Assembly: GCA_041659585.1 (NCBI GenBank)
Contig: JBAZXY010000002.1
Coordinates: forward strand, 1 to 40,761
Length of the DNA: 40,761 bases
Source of the DNA: Parcubacteria group bacterium
GTDB lineage: Bacteria > Patescibacteriota > Minisyncoccia > Moranbacterales > UBA2206
Direction of reading: 5' to 3'
Both the position numbers and the translations under genes were made by a program. This document shows positions 16,699-25,473 of this stretch, in pieces. Below the pieces are notes generated by a model that was given only the letters and a program-made list of their open reading frames with translations, did not search any database and was not told the DNA's origin. The number at the start of each line of letters is the position of its first letter. Position 1 is the stretch's first letter.

Positions 16699-16820
16699 AA
16701 AAAAGCCCTCACGGACTTTTTTGATTGGGCTATTTTAGAAAATTAAATCATTAAAAAGTTTAACCTTAATTTTAAATTCAAAATTAGAAATTAGAAATTC
16801 CCGGCCCTATTCCCACTTCG
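16699..16820. repeat. 122-bp direct repeat, copy 2 (overlaps the last 14 nt of the histidine kinase CDS)
   Basis: Near-identical to 14082-14203. It contains the kinase stop codon and its AT-rich trailer. Confidence 0.9.
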
Positions 16821-18519
16821 CTAACAGTTCTGGCGATTGGACCAGGGGGATTTCAATGATGAAGCGCGAACCATGATCTTGACCATCGGATTCCGCCCAG
16901 ATTTTGCCGCCATTGGACTCAATCATGTTGCGACCCACATAGAGTCCCAGGCCGGTGCCGCCGGTGTTGAGGCGGGAAATGTCTTTGCCACGTGAAAATT
17001 TAGCAAACAAATAGGGCAATTCTGTAGCCGGCACGCCGATGCCGGTGTCCGCCACGGTGATACGAGCTGCGTCACCCACCTGTTGCAAGCGCAATGTCAC
17101 GCCGCCATGGCCATGCAAAGTATATTTGAGCGCGTTGTCTACCAAATTAGAGATCACTTCGCGCACTTTCACCCCATCAATAGTCACTTCCGGCACAGGA
17201 GTTTCCGGCGGCGTATATTCCAAATATAGGTCATTATCCTTGGCTCGCAAGGCAAAAGTATCCAACACTTCTCCACAAATTTTTTCCAAATCCCATTGGT
17301 CGAATTTGAATTCCATGCGGCCAGATTCGATGCGGGAGATGTTGAGCAAATCCTCCACCAAAGTGATCAAGCGTTCGTTGCTGATATAGATCTTGTTCAG
17401 CACTTCCACGTGCTTTTCTCCCACCGGGCCATAGGAACCTTCCAAGAGCAGAGACAAGAAGCCCTTGATGGCAGTGAGGGGGGTGCGCAACTGATGGGAA
17501 GCGATGGAGATAAACTCTGATTTGGCATTGTCCAAGGTGCGCAACTGATCATTGGACTGCGCCAAGCGGTCGGCCATCATCTGCAATTCATCCTTTCTCT
17601 CAACCAATTCCGCGCTGGAAATTTCCAAAGCCTCGCGCAACGCCACTTCCTTTTTCACCGAACGAATCAAATTCCAGCCCATGATGGCAGTCAAAAGCAA
17701 GGTGATGCCGGTCAATACTTGATTAGTGGTGGTTCGCACGAAAGCGAACATCGAAGCGATGAGAATGACCTGCGCCACAATCAAAGCCTGCGTTCCAATA
17801 AGCTTAATATTGAACGCTTTAAATTTAACTATCATATATGCCAATATGCCAATAAAAACAGGCATTCCAAATAATCCATATTGAGTCATCTTCCAATCAA
17901 GAGTGATACTGCCGAATACATTTGTCCAAGAAAAAGAAAGTAAAAAAAATAAAATTCCAGCACCAATCAATAAAATTTGTTTTTTGAAATATATATCTCT
18001 TTCTTTTATGTATTTATAAATTATATAGGAAAGTAATACTATTGCAATAAACATCTCTACTAAATAACCTAATTTAAAAATTGAACCCTCGATAGACTCA
18101 CAACTATCAATATTAAATATTGGGATATTAATATTTGTATATGTTAAACCTAAAAAAATAGAAACTATCATTGCATACAATATATTTAAAAAAACACTTG
18201 CCTTATTCTTATTTATATAAGCATATGCAAAATAAAAACTGCTAGTAAATATGATTATTTCTAACATAGGAAAAAAAGACCACACAGCTGTTATTATTGC
18301 AGAGTTGTTACTTGTCCAAGTGATTAAGCTAAACAATGTCCATATAAAAATACTAAAGGAAATAATAAAGAATAGTATACTAGTTAAACTCCTATTCCTT
18401 GATATAATAAAAAATCCAAAAAACAAAGACACTATTGCTGTAGGGATATGCGAATAGTAAATCATATCAGGAGCAGTAACGCAGCCACCTTGAACATTTG
18501 TTATTAAATTATATAACAT
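16807..18519 (-). CDS. sensor histidine kinase with N-terminal 7TM sensor domain (HisKA + HATPase_c)
   Basis: H-box FISIASHQLRTPLTAIKG, N-box VISNLVDNALKY, G-boxes DTGIGV and GTGLGLYVGRNMIESNGGKIWAES. There are about 7 N-terminal TM helices. No response regulator is present in the window. Confidence 0.9.
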   Translation of the reverse strand: MLYNLITNVQGGCVTAPDMIYYSHIPTAIVSLFFGFFIISRNRSLTSILFFIISFSIFIWTLFSLITWTSNNSAIITAVWSFFPMLEIIIFTSSFYFAYAYINKNKASVFLNILYAMIVSIFLGLTYTNINIPIFNIDSCESIEGSIFKLGYLVEMFIAIVLLSYIIYKYIKERDIYFKKQILLIGAGILFFLLSFSWTNVFGSITLDWKMTQYGLFGMPVFIGILAYMIVKFKAFNIKLIGTQALIVAQVILIASMFAFVRTTTNQVLTGITLLLTAIMGWNLIRSVKKEVALREALEISSAELVERKDELQMMADRLAQSNDQLRTLDNAKSEFISIASHQLRTPLTAIKGFLSLLLEGSYGPVGEKHVEVLNKIYISNERLITLVEDLLNISRIESGRMEFKFDQWDLEKICGEVLDTFALRAKDNDLYLEYTPPETPVPEVTIDGVKVREVISNLVDNALKYTLHGHGGVTLRLQQVGDAARITVADTGIGVPATELPYLFAKFSRGKDISRLNTGGTGLGLYVGRNMIESNGGKIWAESDGQDHGSRFIIEIPLVQSPELLAKWE

Positions 18520-18535
18520 AATTTTATTATTATTT

Positions 18536-19075
18536 TTATATATTTATCTTTTTTTGTAGATAATGTTGGAAATATCCATTATATTTTTTTTGTAATTGTG
18601 GTATTTTCCAATCATTTTCAGTAATTACGCCTCTGCAATTATCTTTTTTACATAAACATTTCATCTCATATGCTTTCACCCCTCTTGATTTATGCAGAAC
18701 CATAGCGTAATCAAAGACCACCTCTTCTCCTGCTTCAATATTCCGCATAGCAACCAAAAAAATTTGGCCACCAAATCCAGCATTAGGATCACAACTATGA
18801 TTAAAAAAATCCGTATCAAATATCTCCTCTTCCTTAATTATCCCTAAAACAAAATTTTCATGTATTTGGAGAGCGTAATCATTCATGTATTCAGGCAAAT
18901 CATCTTCCTCTCTCACATCCATCACATATCCACCGAATATTGCCAACAATTCATCTTTTTTTATATCAGAAAGAGCAAAAACCCCCTTACCACATTCAGC
19001 AATATCCCTCACCTCTAAACTAGAGTTAATCCAGGAAAAATCTTTTTTATTATTATTTTGGGAAACTTTTTTCAT
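18536..19075 (-). CDS. SET-domain protein (putative protein lysine methyltransferase)
   Basis: FFNHSCDPNAGF (NHSC motif), EEVVFDYA, and the post-SET-like CLCKKDNCRG. It lies 16 nt upstream of the kinase start. Confidence 0.85.
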   Translation of the reverse strand: MKKVSQNNNKKDFSWINSSLEVRDIAECGKGVFALSDIKKDELLAIFGGYVMDVREEDDLPEYMNDYALQIHENFVLGIIKEEEIFDTDFFNHSCDPNAGFGGQIFLVAMRNIEAGEEVVFDYAMVLHKSRGVKAYEMKCLCKKDNCRGVITENDWKIPQLQKKYNGYFQHYLQKKINI

Positions 19076-19219: not shown

Positions 19220-19993
19220 CTATATAGCCCTTATGGCTTCGAATACAGATTCGTATCCATAGCTATACAGCCATGCCCAGAACAAACCCTGGATGGCAGC
19301 TAAGAAAACTAACACCAGGGTCATTCCACCGAAACCACCGATTTCCTTTTTAAAGAAGATCGGCACTTGTTCTGGACCATCCCAGATAGTGGCTTTTGCG
19401 TTGAGAACTACCATACCGAGATACCCAACTATTTTTGATTCCCTGTGGATAACATCGATTGCTCGACGATATCCGTTGCCAAAGGTTACGTCCTTGCCGG
19501 TTCTAAGGCTATAGATCATAAACCCCCAAGCGACCAGAAAATCATAAACAGCTGTAGCCATGACTACTTCGATGAAATCTCTCTTGAAGTAGTTGAGGAC
19601 TGCTACCACTCCCATACAGGCAAATACTGCCCAATAGTCCATGGCAACATACCAAGCTCTTTGGCGAAGGGTCATTCTGACACTCGCAGCCATTTCTTCA
19701 TGACTATCATCCTCGACAATCTGGAAGAATTCTCTCGTGGCTTCCTTGATTACCCCCACCACTCTTGTATGACCAAAGACTTCTAGCATCCAAACCGTAA
19801 AACAAACAAGCACACAAAAACAACTAACAGGCATCACCGAAGAAATAACCACTCTCGTGACCAGATCATCAACTTGAAACATGTTTTTTGAAGCTGTGAA
19901 TACCTGCGCTCCCATCACGATTAAATAGAACAGTGACAAGATTTTATTTTCCCAAATCTCCTCAAACAACCGCACAGAAGTTCTCCAGACCAT
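19220..19993 (-). CDS. hypothetical polytopic membrane protein
   Basis: 257 aa with about 6 hydrophobic segments. GGGGGTAGGAAG lies immediately upstream of the ATG. No family motif recognised. Confidence 0.6.
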   Translation of the reverse strand: MVWRTSVRLFEEIWENKILSLFYLIVMGAQVFTASKNMFQVDDLVTRVVISSVMPVSCFCVLVCFTVWMLEVFGHTRVVGVIKEATREFFQIVEDDSHEEMAASVRMTLRQRAWYVAMDYWAVFACMGVVAVLNYFKRDFIEVVMATAVYDFLVAWGFMIYSLRTGKDVTFGNGYRRAIDVIHRESKIVGYLGMVVLNAKATIWDGPEQVPIFFKKEIGGFGGMTLVLVFLAAIQGLFWAWLYSYGYESVFEAIRAI

Positions 19994-20044: not shown

Positions 20045-20112
20045 ATCAAAATGATCCTATATCACTTTGATTTACTATTCTAGCACAAAAAACACTTTTT
20101 GTCAAACAAAAA
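20045..20112. repeat. 68-bp duplicated promoter/leader module, copy A (66/68 identical to 23559-23626)
   Basis: Read directly: atcaaaatgatcctatatcactttgatttactattctagcacaaaaaacactttttgtcaaacaaaaa. Confidence 0.9.
20077..20105 (-). promoter_or_regulatory. sigma70 promoter TTGACA-17-TAGAAT (copy A) driving the 19220-19993 gene
   Basis: On the minus strand TTGACA is at 20105-20100, followed by a 17-nt spacer and TAGAAT at 20082-20077. Confidence 0.6.
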
Positions 20113-20215
20113 AATGTAAGCGTTACTTTTCACTGTCCTATGCCATCAAAAAAAGGCCTCTATTGGCCCTTTTTTGCTATTTATCATATCACCCGATACT
20201 ACCTGCTAAATATAT

Positions 20216-21520
20216 TTACTTAAGCCAACCCCATTTTTTGAGCTTGGCAAAATCTTCCTGTATGAATTTTTCCCCAATATCCGTTCGATAGAACATTTTG
20301 GGAATGATAATTTTGTTAATAAGGTTATATGTTTTTTCTCTGGCCTCCTCCACTGTATCCCCCATGCCTGTCACATGCATGATAAACCCGCTATCACTGG
20401 CGATATAGAAAATATCTCTGCCATCTTCTTTTTTCAAAGAAACCTCTTCAAAATGAATGTGATCAAAATCCTCTTCCGTCACGCCATCAAAAATAATTTC
20501 TACCCCCAGTGAGGAATATTCCTTTGAAGTTATGGCATAGGGAAACGGCGGAGTGGCCACCAACACCACGATGCCATAGCCTTTTTTATATTGCAAATCA
20601 TAGGTCTGACCATCCGCCACCGCCTTCAAAAATTCTCCCCACGGAGACAAATGCAATTCACTTTGTAGTTGCAAAGCCGGAAAACCAAAACGCGCTGTGA
20701 ATTCCAACGGAAAAGCCCCGTCTTCATTGACAATGCAATTCACTTCCACATCTCCGCGAAAATCACCCGCAATCAAAATCGGTTTTAATTTTGCCAAAAT
20801 ATCGGTGAAAAATCGATTTTTTTCATCCGCATCATACCACATCAAAGTTCCCATTTCATAGGTCTGTGGCCCCAGATTTCCATTACAAAGATTCTTGTGC
20901 TCCAAATTCATTTCAATCGGACCCACCCAGTCCGTACCGTTGAAATATCTTCCCACACCAATCTCCACGCCGGAAATTTTCTTTTGCAAATCAATTGAAT
21001 CTGACTCGCTCTTTTTGCTTTTTACATATCTTCTCAGCACATCCTCCACATCCTTGCCATTCTCGCATTGACCCACATAACTGAAAGCTTTGTCGCCATG
21101 GCCATTTTGCTTGATGACCCAAGGACCTTTGTTTTTTTGCACAAAAGCAATGGCCTCTTCGCCATTGCTAAAATTTATCAATGGAGCGATTTGCGCCCCA
21201 CACGCAGAAAGAACCTCCTGCCCGAATTGCCTTCCATCCTCAAGCTTGTCGCCAAAATCACTGCCACCGATTACGGAATAGCCTTTTTTTCGCAATTCAT
21301 CCTGAATCTTGCCATAACCCGTGGTGTCGAAAATAAACAAACCTTCTTTTCCCACCCAATCAATCTCCTTTTCCCAATTATCCGTTTTCTCAATCATCTG
21401 ATCTAGGTTATTGCGTTGATCATCATTCAAAGCAAAAAGACGGACATCGTGTCCCTCTTTTTTCAAACGCAAAGACATCGGAGCAATGGACAGGTCATTT
21501 GAAATACAAAGTATATTCAT
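20216..21520 (-). CDS. PurD-like (glycinamide ribonucleotide synthetase family) ATP-grasp ligase, non-canonical N-terminus
   Basis: WVIKQNGHGDKAF, EHKNLCNGNLGPQTYEMG (compare PurD DHKR..DGD.GPNTGGMG) and PLEFTARFGFPA (compare EFNCRFGDPE). It lacks the PurD N-terminal GGREHA motif. Confidence 0.7.
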   Translation of the reverse strand: MNILCISNDLSIAPMSLRLKKEGHDVRLFALNDDQRNNLDQMIEKTDNWEKEIDWVGKEGLFIFDTTGYGKIQDELRKKGYSVIGGSDFGDKLEDGRQFGQEVLSACGAQIAPLINFSNGEEAIAFVQKNKGPWVIKQNGHGDKAFSYVGQCENGKDVEDVLRRYVKSKKSESDSIDLQKKISGVEIGVGRYFNGTDWVGPIEMNLEHKNLCNGNLGPQTYEMGTLMWYDADEKNRFFTDILAKLKPILIAGDFRGDVEVNCIVNEDGAFPLEFTARFGFPALQLQSELHLSPWGEFLKAVADGQTYDLQYKKGYGIVVLVATPPFPYAITSKEYSSLGVEIIFDGVTEEDFDHIHFEEVSLKKEDGRDIFYIASDSGFIMHVTGMGDTVEEAREKTYNLINKIIIPKMFYRTDIGEKFIQEDFAKLKKWGWLK

Positions 21521-21565
21521 AAAATTTATTTCTTGTTTACCATTAAAACTACAAGGCGATCTATG

Positions 21566-22342
21566 CTATTCTTTTTCACCAAATAGGAATGAATCATCCT
21601 CTCCATAGCTGGGAATCATAATGTCCGACCTTTCTACGTTCTTGAATTCTTTTTCAGTCAATCCTTGCAAAATTTTTGAACCATCGACATATTTTTCTTC
21701 AACCTTGGAGTCTCCGGCCTGCAGAGCCATCCATCCGCCACTTTTCAAAGCTTTTTTTGAAAGATTCAGCACCTTGGTAAAAAATTCTTCAAATTCCGCT
21801 CGTTGATCTTCTGTGATTGGCTCTCCGGTGAAATCACACACAATCCCATCAAAACTTTCTTCCACCCCCGCACGCTCCAAATAGGCGAAGGCATCGCCAA
21901 TAATAAGCTCCAACCTTCGATCATTAAAAACTTTTTGATCGAGATATTTTTTGCAACCCACAATGACTTCCATATCAATCTCCACCATCCTCACCGTCAC
22001 GTTGGGATTCGACTTGAGAGCCAATTCTGCCACATAGCCATCTCCGCCTCCAAGCACAAGAATGTTCCGGTCCGTGTCTTTCATTTTTTTTAGAATTTCC
22101 TGATCATAGAGATGATGATCTTTTTCTGCAGTTTGCATAATGCCATCGATTATCATACATCGTCCAAATTCTTGTGTATCCACAAAGGTGATTTCTTGAA
22201 AATCTGATTTCACATGATGCAATATTTCTTTGATTTCAATTTTCAACTCTCCGCCAGAAAATCTATTAGGAAGACCTATGTATTTTTTCTGACCATCAAA
22301 AGCAGGATCTGCAGATATGCTCACTTGCTCATTTTTATGCAT
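21566..22342 (-). CDS. divergent spermidine synthase-like aminopropyltransferase (paralog of the C-terminal domain of the upstream fusion)
   Basis: ILVLGGGDGYVAELALK (GGGDG SAM/dcSAM motif), VEIDMEVI, IVCDFTGEP (compare D.TDP), MIPSYGE. Confidence 0.75.
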   Translation of the reverse strand: MHKNEQVSISADPAFDGQKKYIGLPNRFSGGELKIEIKEILHHVKSDFQEITFVDTQEFGRCMIIDGIMQTAEKDHHLYDQEILKKMKDTDRNILVLGGGDGYVAELALKSNPNVTVRMVEIDMEVIVGCKKYLDQKVFNDRRLELIIGDAFAYLERAGVEESFDGIVCDFTGEPITEDQRAEFEEFFTKVLNLSKKALKSGGWMALQAGDSKVEEKYVDGSKILQGLTEKEFKNVERSDIMIPSYGEDDSFLFGEKE

Positions 22343-22379
22343 TGTTTTTCATTTAACAATTTAATCCGCAAAGACAAAT

Positions 22380-23447
22380 TTATTTCTTTTCCGCAAACAA
22401 GAAAGCATAGGTTTCCCCATAGCTCGGAATAAAAATATCAGTTCTGGTCACATTAAATACTTTTTTCTCCAAGATACCCTGTATAATATCTGACCCATCA
22501 ATGAATCCTTTCATTGCGCATGACGCACCACCCCGGATGCTTATCCAGCCTGCTTGTTTGATTTTTTTCTCTGAGAAAGTAATCATTTCTTCAAAAAATT
22601 TCCTAAAATCATTTTCCTCTTTTTTCGTTCCAATCGGAGTATCAGTGAGATCGCAAACTATTCCATCATAGACATTGTCGGTATGTTTCAGAAAGTGCAC
22701 CGCATCTCCAATGGAAAGGTTGACATTTTCATTAGCAAAAATATCTTGGTCTAGAAATTTTTGAGCATATCTCACCACCTCCACATCCAAATCAACTATA
22801 TCCACTTTCAATTCAGGATGCTCCTGCATAGCTCGTTGAGCGACATAGCCATCTCCTCCGCCTAAAATCAAAATTTGCTTGTCAGTTTTTCGCATTCTTT
22901 TCAGCAATTCTTTATCATAGAGGTTGTGATCAACTTCTGATGAACGCAAAACTCCATCAATAATCAAACATCTTCCATATTCCTTGGTCTTGGCTACCAC
23001 TATTTTTTGAAAATCTGATTGTGTTTCATGCAGAATCTCCTCAATTTCAAGTTTCATAGGCTTGCCACTGCAAGAAATGGGCAAGTTCAAAAATTGATAT
23101 CCCCGATTAATTTTCTCCGTGTTCACATGATCACAAGAAACCAATGCTTTTAATTTTTCAAAAGCAGCCCTGGTCTCTTCTTCGCTGGCGCAAGTGAAAA
23201 TATCGCAAGCCGCATAGCCCTTGTCCGGCCAAGTGTGCACGGAAATGTGCGAAGAGGACAGCAACAGAAAACCTGTCACGCCCTGGGGTTCAAATTTATA
23301 AAAATATTCGTGCAAAACTTCCATGGAAGTCCCTTCCACTGATTCAGGCAGAACTTTTTTCCAAAAATCCACCGAATCAATTTGCGCCGCATCGCAACCA
23401 AAAAATTCAATCAGATAGTGAATGCCGTTAGGAGTAGAGTTTTTCAT
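22380..23447 (-). CDS. fusion protein: pyruvoyl-dependent AdoMetDC-like (SpeH/SpeD class 1) N-domain + spermidine synthase-like C-domain
   Basis: N-domain: HYLIEFFGCD...GFLLLSSSHISVHTWPDKGYAACDIFTC (self-cleavage/pyruvoyl motif, normally ESH). C-domain: ILILGGGDGYVAQRAMQ, VDLDVEVV, IVCDLTDTP, FIPSYGE. Confidence 0.8.
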   Translation of the reverse strand: MKNSTPNGIHYLIEFFGCDAAQIDSVDFWKKVLPESVEGTSMEVLHEYFYKFEPQGVTGFLLLSSSHISVHTWPDKGYAACDIFTCASEEETRAAFEKLKALVSCDHVNTEKINRGYQFLNLPISCSGKPMKLEIEEILHETQSDFQKIVVAKTKEYGRCLIIDGVLRSSEVDHNLYDKELLKRMRKTDKQILILGGGDGYVAQRAMQEHPELKVDIVDLDVEVVRYAQKFLDQDIFANENVNLSIGDAVHFLKHTDNVYDGIVCDLTDTPIGTKKEENDFRKFFEEMITFSEKKIKQAGWISIRGGASCAMKGFIDGSDIIQGILEKKVFNVTRTDIFIPSYGETYAFLFAEKK

Positions 23448-23558
23448 AAAAAATATTTTTTATTTATCCTCCTTATATACTACCAAAAAATTCAACATAT
23501 TACAAAGCAAGCAATCAATCAGTCATCTCTTATCAGACACGGCCTGTTCAATTATTCA

Positions 23559-23626
23559 ATCAAAATAATCCTATATCACTTTGATTTTCTATTCTAGCAC
23601 AAAAAACACTTTTTGTCAAACAAAAA
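23559..23626. repeat. 68-bp duplicated promoter/leader module, copy B
   Basis: 66/68 identical to 20045-20112. Confidence 0.9.
23591..23619 (-). promoter_or_regulatory. sigma70 promoter TTGACA-17-TAGAAT (copy B) driving the polyamine operon
   Basis: On the minus strand TTGACA is at 23619-23614, followed by a 17-nt spacer and TAGAAT at 23596-23591. Confidence 0.6.
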
Positions 23627-23661
23627 TCGTACCCCTCCTCTTCCTCTCCGGCCAACAAAAA

Positions 23662-23680
23662 AAGGCTTTTTCGAAGCCTT
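23662..23680 (-). terminator. intrinsic terminator after the ABC exporter gene
   Basis: aaggctt / aagcctt 7-bp stem with a 5-nt loop. It is flanked by an A-run and a T-run, so it may work in both directions. Confidence 0.55.
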
Positions 23681-23727
23681 TTTTCTTTTCAGATAAAGCT
23701 ATCCGAGTACATCCTTAAGCACAACCT

Positions 23728-25473
23728 TTATACGCTAGTGTGTTGCAATTCATGCAATTTCTTGTAGACCCCCCCATGAGCCATCAGCTCCTCGTGATCT
23801 CCCCGCTCCACAATCCGACCATTTTCCAACACCAAAATCAAATCGGCTTTGCGAATCGTGCTCAAGCGATGCGCAATCACAAAAGTCGTTTTGCCTTGCA
23901 TGATTTCTTCCATGGCACTTTGCACATATTTTTCCGATTGGCTATCCAAAGCACTAGTCGCTTCATCCAGGATGAGAATCTTGGGATCACGCAAAATCGC
24001 CCGGGCAATGGTTAGACGCTGTCTTTGTCCGACTGACAGTCTAGACCCTCGATCGCCCACTAAAGTATTATATTGCTTCGGCAACTTATGCACAAACTCA
24101 TGACAATGCGCTTTTTTAGCCACCGCCAAAATATCCTCCGTTCGCAGAGTGCGTGACGCAGAATAAGCGATATTTTTCCTGATCGTGTCATGAAACAATC
24201 CATTTTCCTGCGAAACAATGCCGATATGCTCTCGCAAATCATGCAAATTGATGTTTTGGATATCCATCCCATCCAGCAGAATCCTTCCGGAGGATGGAGC
24301 GATAAAACGCGGCAACAAATCTAGCAGCGTGGTTTTTCCTTGTCCGCTTTTTCCCACAATCGCCACCACCTGTCCCGGGTGCGCGGTGAAATTAATATCT
24401 CTTAGCACTTCATGCGTACCATAAGAAAAAGAGACATGTTCAAACTGTATTTTCCCCACGCAAGATTTCAAGGCGTGCGCCTCCTTATCATCATAATTTT
24501 CTTCCTGTGACTGATAGATATCTTCCGCTCGACCGATTACCACCAGACCTTCTTGCAATTCTTTGTAGTTGCTGCCCAAAGTTTGGATGGAAGCGGAAGC
24601 CATGTTGATATAGGCCAACAGCATTATGAATTCTCCGATGGTGATTTTTCCCACCGAAACGAAATAGAGTCCCGACAAAAACAACCCGAGAAATCCAGTC
24701 GAAAAAACCACATGCTGCCATAATTGCAAATTCATCCACAGCCGCGTGTAGCGATCCACATAATGATAGATGATGTCATATTTTTTCAGCGCACTACGAT
24801 ATTCAGTTTCTTCGGCATTGTTAGCTTTGATAGCCATCACGTTCGGAGTGCGTTCAAAGGCGTCCCCATACACGTCTTCATAGCGCGCACTGATAGCATC
24901 ACTCTGCGTGATAATAGGCTGGATTTTGCGCAAGGTGATGAAAATAAAAATCAAAATGAACAATCCATAGATCAAGGCTAATTCCCATTTAATCCAAGCA
25001 ATCACCCCAAACGCCAGGATGGAAGTAAAGATGTGCGGTGCACTTTGTAAAAGCCCTTCATTGATGACTTTATCCATATAATCATCAGCGCGGTCAAATC
25101 TTTCCAGCAACTCTACTGTCTTATGATTCTTATGAAAAGCCAGTGGCAAACGAATGAGATGTCGCACATACTTAGCAAACATACCCACTCCCACCCGATA
25201 GCCAATCAGCACCCCGCGATGGATGCGCGCCCGCATACACCATTCACTAATCAAGCTCAAAACAAACCACAGCCCAATCAGTTCAATCACGTCCCAGGAA
25301 AAGGATTTATTAGTCACCACTCGGTCAATAGCCTTGCCATAGAACAATGGCAAAATCAACTGAATGCCATTTTCCACAATCACAAAAACTGCTGCTATTC
25401 CCAGTGCTTTCTTTTGCGGCAATAAATACTTAATAATAATTCCCAAATAGTTCCTGGTGTTTTTCATAGTCAC
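23728..25473 (-). CDS. ABC exporter, fused permease/ATPase (MsbA/type I exporter-like)
   Basis: Six N-terminal TM segments. Walker A GKSGQGKTT, signature LSVGQRQR, Walker B ILILDEATSALD, H-loop AHRLST. Confidence 0.9.
   Translation of the reverse strand: MTMKNTRNYLGIIIKYLLPQKKALGIAAVFVIVENGIQLILPLFYGKAIDRVVTNKSFSWDVIELIGLWFVLSLISEWCMRARIHRGVLIGYRVGVGMFAKYVRHLIRLPLAFHKNHKTVELLERFDRADDYMDKVINEGLLQSAPHIFTSILAFGVIAWIKWELALIYGLFILIFIFITLRKIQPIITQSDAISARYEDVYGDAFERTPNVMAIKANNAEETEYRSALKKYDIIYHYVDRYTRLWMNLQLWQHVVFSTGFLGLFLSGLYFVSVGKITIGEFIMLLAYINMASASIQTLGSNYKELQEGLVVIGRAEDIYQSQEENYDDKEAHALKSCVGKIQFEHVSFSYGTHEVLRDINFTAHPGQVVAIVGKSGQGKTTLLDLLPRFIAPSSGRILLDGMDIQNINLHDLREHIGIVSQENGLFHDTIRKNIAYSASRTLRTEDILAVAKKAHCHEFVHKLPKQYNTLVGDRGSRLSVGQRQRLTIARAILRDPKILILDEATSALDSQSEKYVQSAMEEIMQGKTTFVIAHRLSTIRKADLILVLENGRIVERGDHEELMAHGGVYKKLHELQHTSV

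Follow-up and report, generated by a model that had tools for sequence, protein, structure and literature searches.

Three genes behind one promoter

We analysed a stretch of 40,761 nucleotides (in the following the window) from the genome of a Parcubacteria group bacterium (assembly GCA_041659585.1, contig JBAZXY010000002.1, positions 1 to 40,761 of the forward strand). It carries three consecutive genes on the minus strand that an earlier note, made from the sequence alone, had described as a polyamine-type operon. This description was borne out. Gene 1 (23447-22380, 355 aa) encodes a fusion of an S-adenosylmethionine decarboxylase (AdoMetDC) with an aminopropyltransferase, gene 2 (22342-21566, 258 aa) encodes a second aminopropyltransferase, and the third gene (21520-20216, 434 aa) encodes a PurD-fold ATP-grasp enzyme. 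Together they may synthesize a polyamine and then acylate a polyamine-type amine.

The tight spacing and the single consensus promoter reported in the earlier note were likewise found. The gaps between the genes measure 37 nt (22343-22379) and 45 nt (21521-21565), and neither holds a terminator-like hairpin. The promoter (23591..23619, minus strand) reads TTGACA-17-TAGAAT from 23619 to 23591, matches 11 of 12 consensus positions and carries a TG ahead of the -10 hexamer. A 5' leader of some 140 nt (23448..23590, minus strand) separates it from the first ATG. Upstream, a stem-loop with a T run (23651-23684) terminates the preceding gene, which encodes an ATP-binding cassette (ABC) protein. Downstream, an intrinsic terminator (20142..20175, minus strand) with the stem GGGCCAATAGAGGCC and a subsequent T run closes the operon. 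Since one promoter lies ahead of the block, terminators flank it and none is found in the gaps, the three genes read as a single transcription unit.

The arrangement is kept in a sibling species (12 contigs), whose proteins are 87-94% identical to those of the window. There, an identical promoter precedes the fusion gene (L152:6905-6933), the leader is retained, and the gene order is fusion, gene 2, ligase and membrane protein, followed by GNAT, a family that we call cl15, kinase and regulator. The host genome comprises 1.42 Mb in 169 contigs and is 94% complete. Homologues bear the names Candidatus Moranbacteria / Moraniibacteriota (Patescibacteria), and the window sequence was found in groundwater and hydrocarbon metagenomes, all of them DNA runs.

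Decarboxylase and aminopropyltransferases

The N-terminal part of gene 1 (23100..23426, minus strand; aa 10-116) matches the class 1b AdoMetDC (SpeD) domain PF02675 AdoMet_dc with 106.6 bits against a cut-off of 25, and it passes the NCBIfam AdoMetDC equivalog TIGR03330 (106.4 bits, cut-off 75.65). Its alignment with the Thermotoga maritima AdoMetDC 1TLU is free of gaps and places S66, H71 and C86 on S63, H68 and C83, i.e. on the T. maritima-type Ser/His/Cys residues that have been named for SpeD self-processing and catalysis (PMC10407285). Ser66 is thus the predicted pyruvoyl precursor, with His71 and Cys86 completing the triad. The processing motif is LSSSHISVHTWP, with S-S-H in place of the usual E-S-H; it contains the SSSH that the earlier note had quoted. 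At this site all fusion homologues carry S/T/A-S-H. Other pyruvoyl enzymes cleave at Ser-Ser or Lys-Ser, so that a Ser ahead of the processing Ser is not disqualifying.

In the earlier note the SSSH motif had been taken as a possible mark of recruitment as an arginine or ornithine decarboxylase, and this is not supported. SpeD homologues of the ornithine decarboxylase type possess diagnostic Gln, Thr, Phe and Tyr residues (PMC10407285). By our own placement of these residues on the alignment in Fig. S5 of that paper, they would appear as Q..ETS....HF, and the ETS/HF pattern is absent from the gene 1 domain. This domain is also the sole SpeD domain in the genome, and two transferase domains that depend on decarboxylated S-adenosylmethionine (dcAdoMet) are encoded beside it. 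Because the equivalog cut-off is passed, the triad is in register with 1TLU, no other SpeD is present, the transferases adjoin and fusions of this kind from Pelagibacter are active, we read the domain as a genuine class 1b AdoMetDC rather than as a recruited arginine or ornithine decarboxylase.

For S-adenosylmethionine (SAM) synthetase, the genome gave no match to either the bacterial or the archaeal model, and SAM must therefore be imported. This would apply well beyond the host: MetK is present in 8 of 61 sampled genomes of the order and the bacterial MetK is absent from 53 of the 61, the fusion-bearing genomes G006, G034 and G037 being among those without MetK. The absence of MetK from most genomes implies that SAM uptake is general in the order. 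The MetK-less genomes include some that encode AdoMetDC, radical-SAM enzymes and many methyltransferases.

The aminopropyltransferase domain of gene 1 (22380..23057, minus strand) and the stand-alone gene 2 (21566..22342, minus strand) both match PF17284 and PF01564, the tetramerisation and the catalytic domain of spermidine synthase. For PF01564 and PF17284 the scores are 67.6 and 43.1 bits in gene 1 and 82.2 and 45.6 bits in gene 2, all above the Pfam cut-offs. Neither protein reaches the cut-off of the speE equivalog TIGR00417 (249.55 bits), with scores of 106.4 bits for gene 1 and 122.3 bits for gene 2. By these scores both are members of the family that are not assignable as spermidine synthase. 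That gene 2 is a paralogue of the fused domain was confirmed by an identity of 46-47%.

Alignment columns D173, H174, Y177, D178, GGGDG, D221, D266, T268 and P271 are invariant. In terms of motifs, little or no variation is seen in GGGDG, IGDA and DH..YD, at the acidic position of VDLD/VEID and at the catalytic Asp in CD(L/F)T, and the positions of the dcAdoMet-binding motifs agree with those of the solved structures 6BQ2, 7XIF and 6O64. The dcAdoMet-binding residues, whose loss the earlier note had named as a ground for giving up the operon reading, are kept in both transferases, so that this ground falls away. The motifs quoted there are also present: GGGDGY and IPSYGE in both proteins, CDLTDTP in gene 1 (together with VDLD and IGDA) and CDFTGEP in gene 2. 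They are not a peculiarity of this operon, however, since GGGDGY, DLTDxP and IPS(Y/F)GE mark the whole clade.

A difference between the two transferases lies in the acceptor motif. The second Asp of D-x-T-D-P, which we take to contact the distal amine in spermidine synthases, is kept in gene 1 (DLTDTP) and replaced in gene 2 (DFTGEP). In gene 2 and its sibling orthologue this Asp has become Gly, with a Glu one position later, and the fusion protein P0150 shows the DFTGEP variant as well. Among solved relatives, the fused domain scores best with spermidine synthases (81.6 bits, versus 69.5 bits for thermospermine synthase), whereas gene 2 scores best with thermospermine synthase 6BQ2 (90.6 bits) and the long-chain transferase 7XIF (88 bits), ahead of spermidine synthases (about 80 bits). 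Two successive aminopropyl transfers, as suggested in the earlier note, are thus plausible and weakly indicated, with the fused domain nearest to spermidine synthases and gene 2 nearest to thermospermine or long-chain enzymes.

Regarding the acceptor, a tblastn search of the genome gave neither an agmatinase nor a DHS-like gene. The sole protein of the ornithine/arginine/diaminopimelate decarboxylase fold in the genome is LysA-like (294.9 bits, cut-off 297.9). Since the genome yielded neither an agmatinase nor a decarboxylase dedicated to diamine formation, the acceptor amine is probably taken up. The LysA-like gene is present in two near-identical copies on separate contigs (C23:12610-13830 and C163:861-2081), in keeping with the value of 7.4% given for contamination or strain heterogeneity of the assembly.

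The PurD-derived ligase family and its chromosomal slot

Gene 3 (20216..21520, minus strand) matches PF01071 GARS_A and PF02843 GARS_C. On the purD equivalog TIGR00877 it scores 95.3 bits, far below the cut-off of 288, whereas six genuine PurDs of the same order score 422-523 bits. An AlphaFold2 model (pLDDT 91.7) matched 15 PurD structures with TM scores of 0.73-0.77 at 18-22% identity, predicting the four-domain PurD fold with its ATP-grasp core. Residues K137, E186, K209, E273, R277, R412 and D414 are invariant across the ligase family and PurD. The loops GGREHA (N-domain) and GGRV (C-domain), which we take to hold phosphoribosylamine in PurD, read NDLSIA and DSGFI in gene 3 and are lost throughout the family; the earlier note had correctly pointed out the first of these losses. 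The glycine contacts of PurD are Asp212, Arg287 and Glu292 (PMC8880213). By motif alignment they correspond to E207, R277 and A282, of which the first two represent retention or conservative change and the third a loss. The family has an added acidic residue in the T(G/Y)(E/D)MG loop, and gene 3 reads LEFT for the IEFN of PurD, which replaces Asn by Thr two residues after the Mg-binding Glu273.

The absence of nearby purine genes, also stated before, was verified. Over the whole 1.42-Mb genome no PurD or PurM above cut-off was found (PurM 90.8 versus 236 bits), these two being the only purine pathway genes that were searched; the second-best PurD match is D-Ala-D-Ala ligase. Two genomes of the order, G003 and G123, encode a genuine PurD (422-507 bits) alongside a member of the ligase family. 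In the tree, a long branch splits the PurDs from all ligase-family members, and the six PurDs lie together on one side. The score, the lost phosphoribosylamine loops, the coexisting genuine PurD, the separating branch and the absent pathway all argue that this ATP-grasp enzyme is not PurD. As far as sequence comparison goes, gene 3 is a member of an uncharacterised, mis-annotated family derived from PurD.

This family is large. A word index returned more than 3,900 matches, with genuine PurDs possibly among them. Clustered at 50% identity, 396 groups have E <= 1e-30, most of them from candidate-phyla bacteria. To characterize its genomic context we took a census of the neighbourhoods of 77 species-level ligase loci. 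As polyamine-type neighbours we counted SpeD homologues, agmatinases, non-LysA decarboxylases dependent on pyridoxal phosphate (PLP), enzymes resembling guanidinoacetate N-methyltransferase (GAMT) and SpeE. A polyamine or guanidino-amine enzyme of this kind occurs within 5 genes of the ligase in 28 of the 77 loci (36%) and directly adjacent to it in 16; at larger distances 4 of 432 genes were of this type. The ligase family is thus recurrently found beside polyamine or agmatine genes. Stand-alone SpeD homologues account for 14 loci within 5 genes, and in 8 loci such a homologue is the immediate same-strand neighbour of the ligase, at a distance of 6-186 nt. SpeD and ligase lie within 3 kb of each other in 5 of the 17 genomes of the order that have both, compared to about 0.15 that we estimate for chance.

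The identity of these neighbours was examined by their scores. The agmatinase lies above its equivalog cut-off, and the PLP decarboxylase far below the LysA cut-off. The GAMT-like protein is a close homologue of the vertebrate guanidinoacetate N-methyltransferase (E 1.7e-48 to 1XCJ) without a Pfam or NCBIfam match. Seven candidate-phyla genomes have its gene close to the ligase (cluster 16; L080:9370-10077 and six further loci); the distance is at most 3 genes in five of them, and in three the two are adjacent. A distinct ligase subfamily, subfamily 2 (38-43% identity), always occurs in the order MurC, MurB, DHS-like, agmatinase, methyltransferase, ligase, and in G003 in the order SpeE, SpeD, DHS-like, agmatinase, ligase. 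Two further candidate associations were rejected: at locus L117 the supposed SpeE match turned out to be a second SpeD homologue, and a supposedly SpeE-like neighbour in Polaromonas is an NPPY methyltransferase without similarity to gene 2.

Membrane and signalling proteins are even more common in the census. An EamA/DMT transporter or a membrane protein of the family that we call memb255 lies within 3 genes of the ligase in 60 of the 77 loci (78%), and a seven-transmembrane (7TM) histidine kinase within 5 genes in 51 (66%). A membrane-anchored, Cys-rich acidic protein is found within 5 genes in 27 loci, and a GNAT, SET or PRMT-like transferase in 21.

Among 151 genomes of the order, eight others carry the fusion and about 36 carry the ligase, with none beyond the genus holding both. 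The synteny on which the earlier note had made its operon depend is therefore found in part: the three-gene order is kept in the sibling species, but no other genome among the 151 holds fusion and ligase together. The pair of fusion and gene 2 is kept in three other genomes (G006, G034 and G078). Where the ligase is missing, the fusion has the Cys-rich acidic protein upstream and memb255, SET, GNAT, cl15 and kinase genes downstream. Fusion and ligase have these neighbours in common across genomes; they are therefore alternative or combinable occupants of one variable chromosomal slot.

In the window the slot is flanked as follows. Downstream of the operon a 257-aa helical membrane protein (19220..19993, minus strand) belongs to memb255, a family found within 5 genes of the ligase in 20 of the 77 loci. 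It has no Pfam match, and its AlphaFold2 model (pLDDT 85) did not resemble any PDB fold significantly (best E 0.8, TM <0.25), such that no transporter class was assignable. The motifs G.D.TLG...RR, W(D/E)GP(E/D) and Q..FW..LY..GY are conserved in memb255, and beside the ligase memb255 and EamA are mostly alternative neighbours. Next come a SET-domain methyltransferase (18536-19075, minus strand; PF00856; within 5 genes of the ligase in 9 of 77 loci) and a 7TM histidine kinase (16807-18519, minus strand; HisKA, HATPase_c and HisKA_7TM), which constitute the conserved downstream context of the slot. Upstream lies an ABC exporter-type half-transporter (23728..25473, minus strand; PF00664 and PF00005), whose family also adjoins the pair of fusion and gene 2 in G006, G034 and G078. 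For the cl15 family (about 255 aa), a frequent neighbour of the slot, neither Pfam nor the PDB offered a relative. Elsewhere the Cys-rich acidic protein, a membrane-anchored Cys-rich module with a long Glu/Asp-rich tail, is encoded just upstream of the ligase or the fusion (L019:6054-6728, L003:5155-5868). With its N-terminal membrane anchor it is probably extracellular; it is probably also polyanionic and could therefore bind polycations.

The operon is bracketed exactly by two copies of a module of 126-131 nt that combines terminator, promoter and leader (20045-20175 and 23559-23684). The upstream copy (23559..23684, minus strand) is 97% identical to 20045-20112 over 68 nt, and its terminator part is 74% identical to 20142-20175. 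In the second copy, the promoter and leader (20045..20112, minus strand; TTGACA-17-TAGAAT at 20105-20077) would drive the membrane-protein gene, so that the duplication puts this gene under the same promoter as the three-gene block. These two copies are the only ones in the whole genome; the sibling species has the upstream copy only, the second being absent at the corresponding position. The leader of the module carries an inverted repeat AATCAAA-N15-TTTGATT. A riboswitch in the leader (23448-23590) was considered and rejected, with zero Rfam matches at E up to 1 and a fold that is not significant (z = -1.7).

More distant members of the ligase family show further architectures. The cultivated beta-proteobacterium Polaromonas aquatica possesses a 35%-identical member (L150/L151:7054-10887), whose start overlaps the stop of the NPPY-motif methyltransferase gene and which is followed by an iron-containing redox enzyme (PF14518). 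A phage protein of 1,236 aa (P0355; L154:2818-6528), encoded between terminase and capsid genes, combines a portal domain, a PurD-like ATP-grasp domain (35% identity over residues 15-432) and a Mu-F head morphogenesis domain; here a family member appears to be built into a virion protein. LAGLIDADG/Hint inteins interrupt the catalytic half of P0254, P0260 and P0266 (about 750-1,120 aa), near the positions of residues 225-276 of the window protein. In P0267 the ligase has a C-terminal SET-like domain, and a HAD-like DxDxT/DxDGV domain is fused C-terminally in P0294 and N-terminally in P0369.

Proposed pathway, alternatives and comparison with known systems

We propose that the operon makes a polyamine and that an ATP-dependent acylation of a polyamine-type amine follows, a reading to which we assign a probability of roughly 0.45. 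Its two halves differ in strength. The polyamine half is, with high confidence, ordinary biochemistry in an unusual lineage. Here the N-terminal domain of gene 1 would process itself between Ser65 and Ser66 into a pyruvoyl AdoMetDC that yields decarboxylated SAM, a well-supported step. With dcAdoMet as the donor, the fused transferase and gene 2 would then add aminopropyl groups to di- or polyamine acceptors. This chemistry is also well supported, with the fused domain most likely performing a first, spermidine-synthase-like transfer and gene 2 a second, thermospermine- or long-chain-like one.

For the other half we infer both the acylated-polyamine product and the substrates of the ligase. 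Gene 3 would act as an ATP-dependent amide ligase, coupling a primary amine of a polyamine-type compound with a small carboxylate. This role is suggested because the acyl-phosphate machinery is kept, the phosphoribosylamine site is lost, polyamine or agmatine genes are recurrent neighbours and there is a precedent in HsvC, an ATP-grasp enzyme that joins L-Val to amidinospermidine (PMC6187163). The carboxylate is probably other than plain glycine, given that one of the three glycine contacts of PurD is lost. The amine may be the operon's own product here, and agmatine, putrescine or homospermidine in relatives. Membrane partners would handle the product, namely the 257-aa protein in the window and a DMT/EamA protein in most relatives. 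In evolutionary terms the ligase would be the older resident of the variable slot upstream of the 7TM kinase, with the polyamine genes having joined its transcription unit in this genus.

Several observations weigh against this proposal. The eight other fusion-bearing genomes of the order lack the ligase, and in a variable slot part of the adjacency could reflect accessory genes piling up in one place. The most frequent ligase neighbours are the transporter and the histidine kinase, not polyamine enzymes. At the level of whole genomes the ligase does not depend on SpeD, which is present in 17 of 36 genomes with the ligase (47%) versus 47 of 115 without it (41%); a genome-level co-occurrence was thus rejected. 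Distant family members stand in other contexts, such as Polaromonas, the HAD fusions and the phage portal polyprotein. Catalysis by gene 3 is assumed in the face of the Asn to Thr change near Glu273, and the order of the two transfers is weakly indicated by differences of about 10 bits. The stronger transporter and kinase associations, the absent genome-level co-occurrence and the varied contexts of distant members keep other explanations alive.

One of these is that the ligase has nothing to do with polyamines and belongs to a transporter and 7TM-kinase module, e.g. for an envelope or signalling metabolite, with the shared slot and promoter being incidental. The census of 77 loci (51 with the kinase within 5 genes and 60 with EamA or memb255 within 3, compared to 28 with polyamine-type genes within 5) agrees with it, as do the lack of genome-level co-occurrence with SpeD and the fact that fusion and ligase never meet in the other 150 genomes of the order. 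We nevertheless regard it as unlikely, while giving it a real chance: in subfamily 2 the polyamine link is seen again elsewhere on the chromosome, at a site without the kinase, SpeD and ligase form closely spaced pairs in the same orientation, the neighbours include five different families of polyamine or agmatine enzymes, and the 45-nt terminator-free gap inside one transcription unit is kept in the sibling species. Less probable still is that proteins or peptides are the targets of the ligase, as they are for RimK or tubulin-tyrosine ligase. Lys, Arg or acidic residues would then be modified jointly with the SET, GNAT and PRMT-like enzymes, a polyamine being at most the attached group. Of the 77 loci, 21 do have such transferase genes within 5 genes, P0267 carries a fused SET-like domain, and a portal-MuF polyprotein such as the one that contains a family member is a typical carrier of protein-directed enzymes. 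Yet the fold and its nearest relatives, the PurDs, act on small molecules, the recurrent Cys-rich acidic protein is membrane-anchored and probably outside the cell, and small amines are the substrates of all the neighbouring GAMT-like, agmatinase, DHS-like and decarboxylase enzymes.

Two further alternatives concern the identity of single enzymes. SpeD homologues have repeatedly become arginine or ornithine decarboxylases, candidate-phyla bacteria included (PMC10407285), and if this held for gene 1 the operon would make a diamine instead of dcAdoMet. It would fit that the fusion clade has Ser, Thr or Ala where a Glu usually precedes the processing Ser, and that SAM synthetase is missing. We consider this very unlikely, seeing that the domain passes the equivalog cut-off, just below which a relative's stand-alone SpeD homologue falls, and that it lacks the ETS/HF pattern of the ornithine decarboxylase type. 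It is moreover the sole SpeD and is fused to a dcAdoMet-dependent transferase, such that two transferases would be left without a substrate. Fusions of the same architecture have AdoMetDC activity (PMC11107197), and as most genomes of the order lack MetK anyway, SAM import would be general. That gene 3 is a divergent but genuine glycinamide ribonucleotide (GAR) synthetase, or a salvage variant still using phosphoribosylamine, is hardly credible. The PurD fold, the GARS_A and GARS_C matches and the public naming as phosphoribosylamine-glycine ligase speak for it; against it stand the score of 95 bits for a cut-off of 288, the loss of GGREHA and GGRV, a genome without PurM, the genuine PurDs (422-507 bits) beside the ligase family in G003 and G123, and the long branch between the gene 3 family and PurD.

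Taken further, polyamine synthesis followed by acylation would suggest that candidate-phyla bacteria make an undescribed class of acylated polyamines or agmatines. A PurD-derived ligase would have swapped phosphoribosylamine for a cationic amine and would act in this operon on its tri- or tetra-amine, the product passing to membrane proteins for the cell surface or for exchange with a host; the family would have spread into a phage portal-MuF protein and acquired inteins. We put this forward tentatively and, taken as a whole, find it doubtful. Were the family to acylate polyamine-type amines, a widespread mis-annotation would be corrected, since thousands of its proteins are publicly named "phosphoribosylamine-glycine ligase" and their carriers are mostly unable to make purines. 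Polyamine metabolism would also gain a new branch, located in that third of bacterial diversity which is least understood, and evolution would offer a clear example of an amine substrate being exchanged in a core purine enzyme. The window contributes the first operonic link of the ligase family to a route of AdoMetDC and aminopropyl transfer. With the ligase sharing a promoter with a complete unit for dcAdoMet formation and aminopropyl transfer, it is the cleanest experimental entry point, and Polaromonas aquatica could serve as a tractable model for the family. An AdoMetDC without any SAM synthetase in addition implies SAM import in these symbionts.

Compared with known systems, the fusion and the transferases are new representatives of kinds already described. 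The fusions of Ca. Pelagibacter ubique HTCC1062 and HTCC7211 share with gene 1 the N-terminal class 1b AdoMetDC and the C-terminal aminopropyltransferase; both of their domains are active, and in E. coli they gave spermidine together with spermine or thermospermine (Li et al. 2024, PMC11107197). The clade of gene 1 differs in its occurrence in candidate-phyla bacteria and in its signatures (S/T/A)-S-H, GGGDGY, DLTDxP and IPS(Y/F)GE. In the window, unlike in Pelagibacter, a second transferase and a ligase follow, and the activity is predicted from sequence. With thermospermine synthase ACL5 (6BQ2) and the long-chain or agmatine aminopropyltransferases 7XIF and Thermus 1UIR, the clade has the DLTDP-type acceptor motif in common; gene 2 departs from them with a match of only about 90 bits and with DFTGEP, in which Gly stands for the second Asp and Glu one position later. 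The agmatine-to-homospermidine route, consisting of a DHS-like synthase (NF002699, '1,9-bis(guanidino)-5-aza-nonane synthase') and an agmatinase-family ureohydrolase, lies beside ligase subfamily 2 in relatives. This enzyme pair is absent here, where AdoMetDC and aminopropyl transfer form the partner pathway of the ligase.

Gene 3 itself shares with PurD, the GAR synthetase (EC 6.3.4.13; TIGR00877; 2YW2, 2YS6, 2XCL), the four-domain fold and the residues of the ATP-grasp core, together with the carboxylate-holding Arg (R277) and an acidic residue before HK (E207 for Asp). It differs from PurD by Ala for the Glu of GDPE, Thr for the Asn of E-x-N, the acidic addition in the T(G/Y)(E/D)MG loop, a C-terminal KxWGW tail, the lost GGREHA and GGRV loops and the lack of a purine pathway. 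The chemistry proposed for it, an acyl-phosphate attacked by the amine of a polyamine, is that of HsvC/HsvB of the phevamine pathway (PMC6187163) and of the glutathionylspermidine and trypanothione synthetases. The likeness to HsvC-type ligases is one of chemistry and gene context only, the candidate-phyla radiation family of gene 3 descending from PurD. Like gene 3, these polyamine-acylating ATP-grasp ligases are encoded beside an enzyme that makes or modifies the polyamine.

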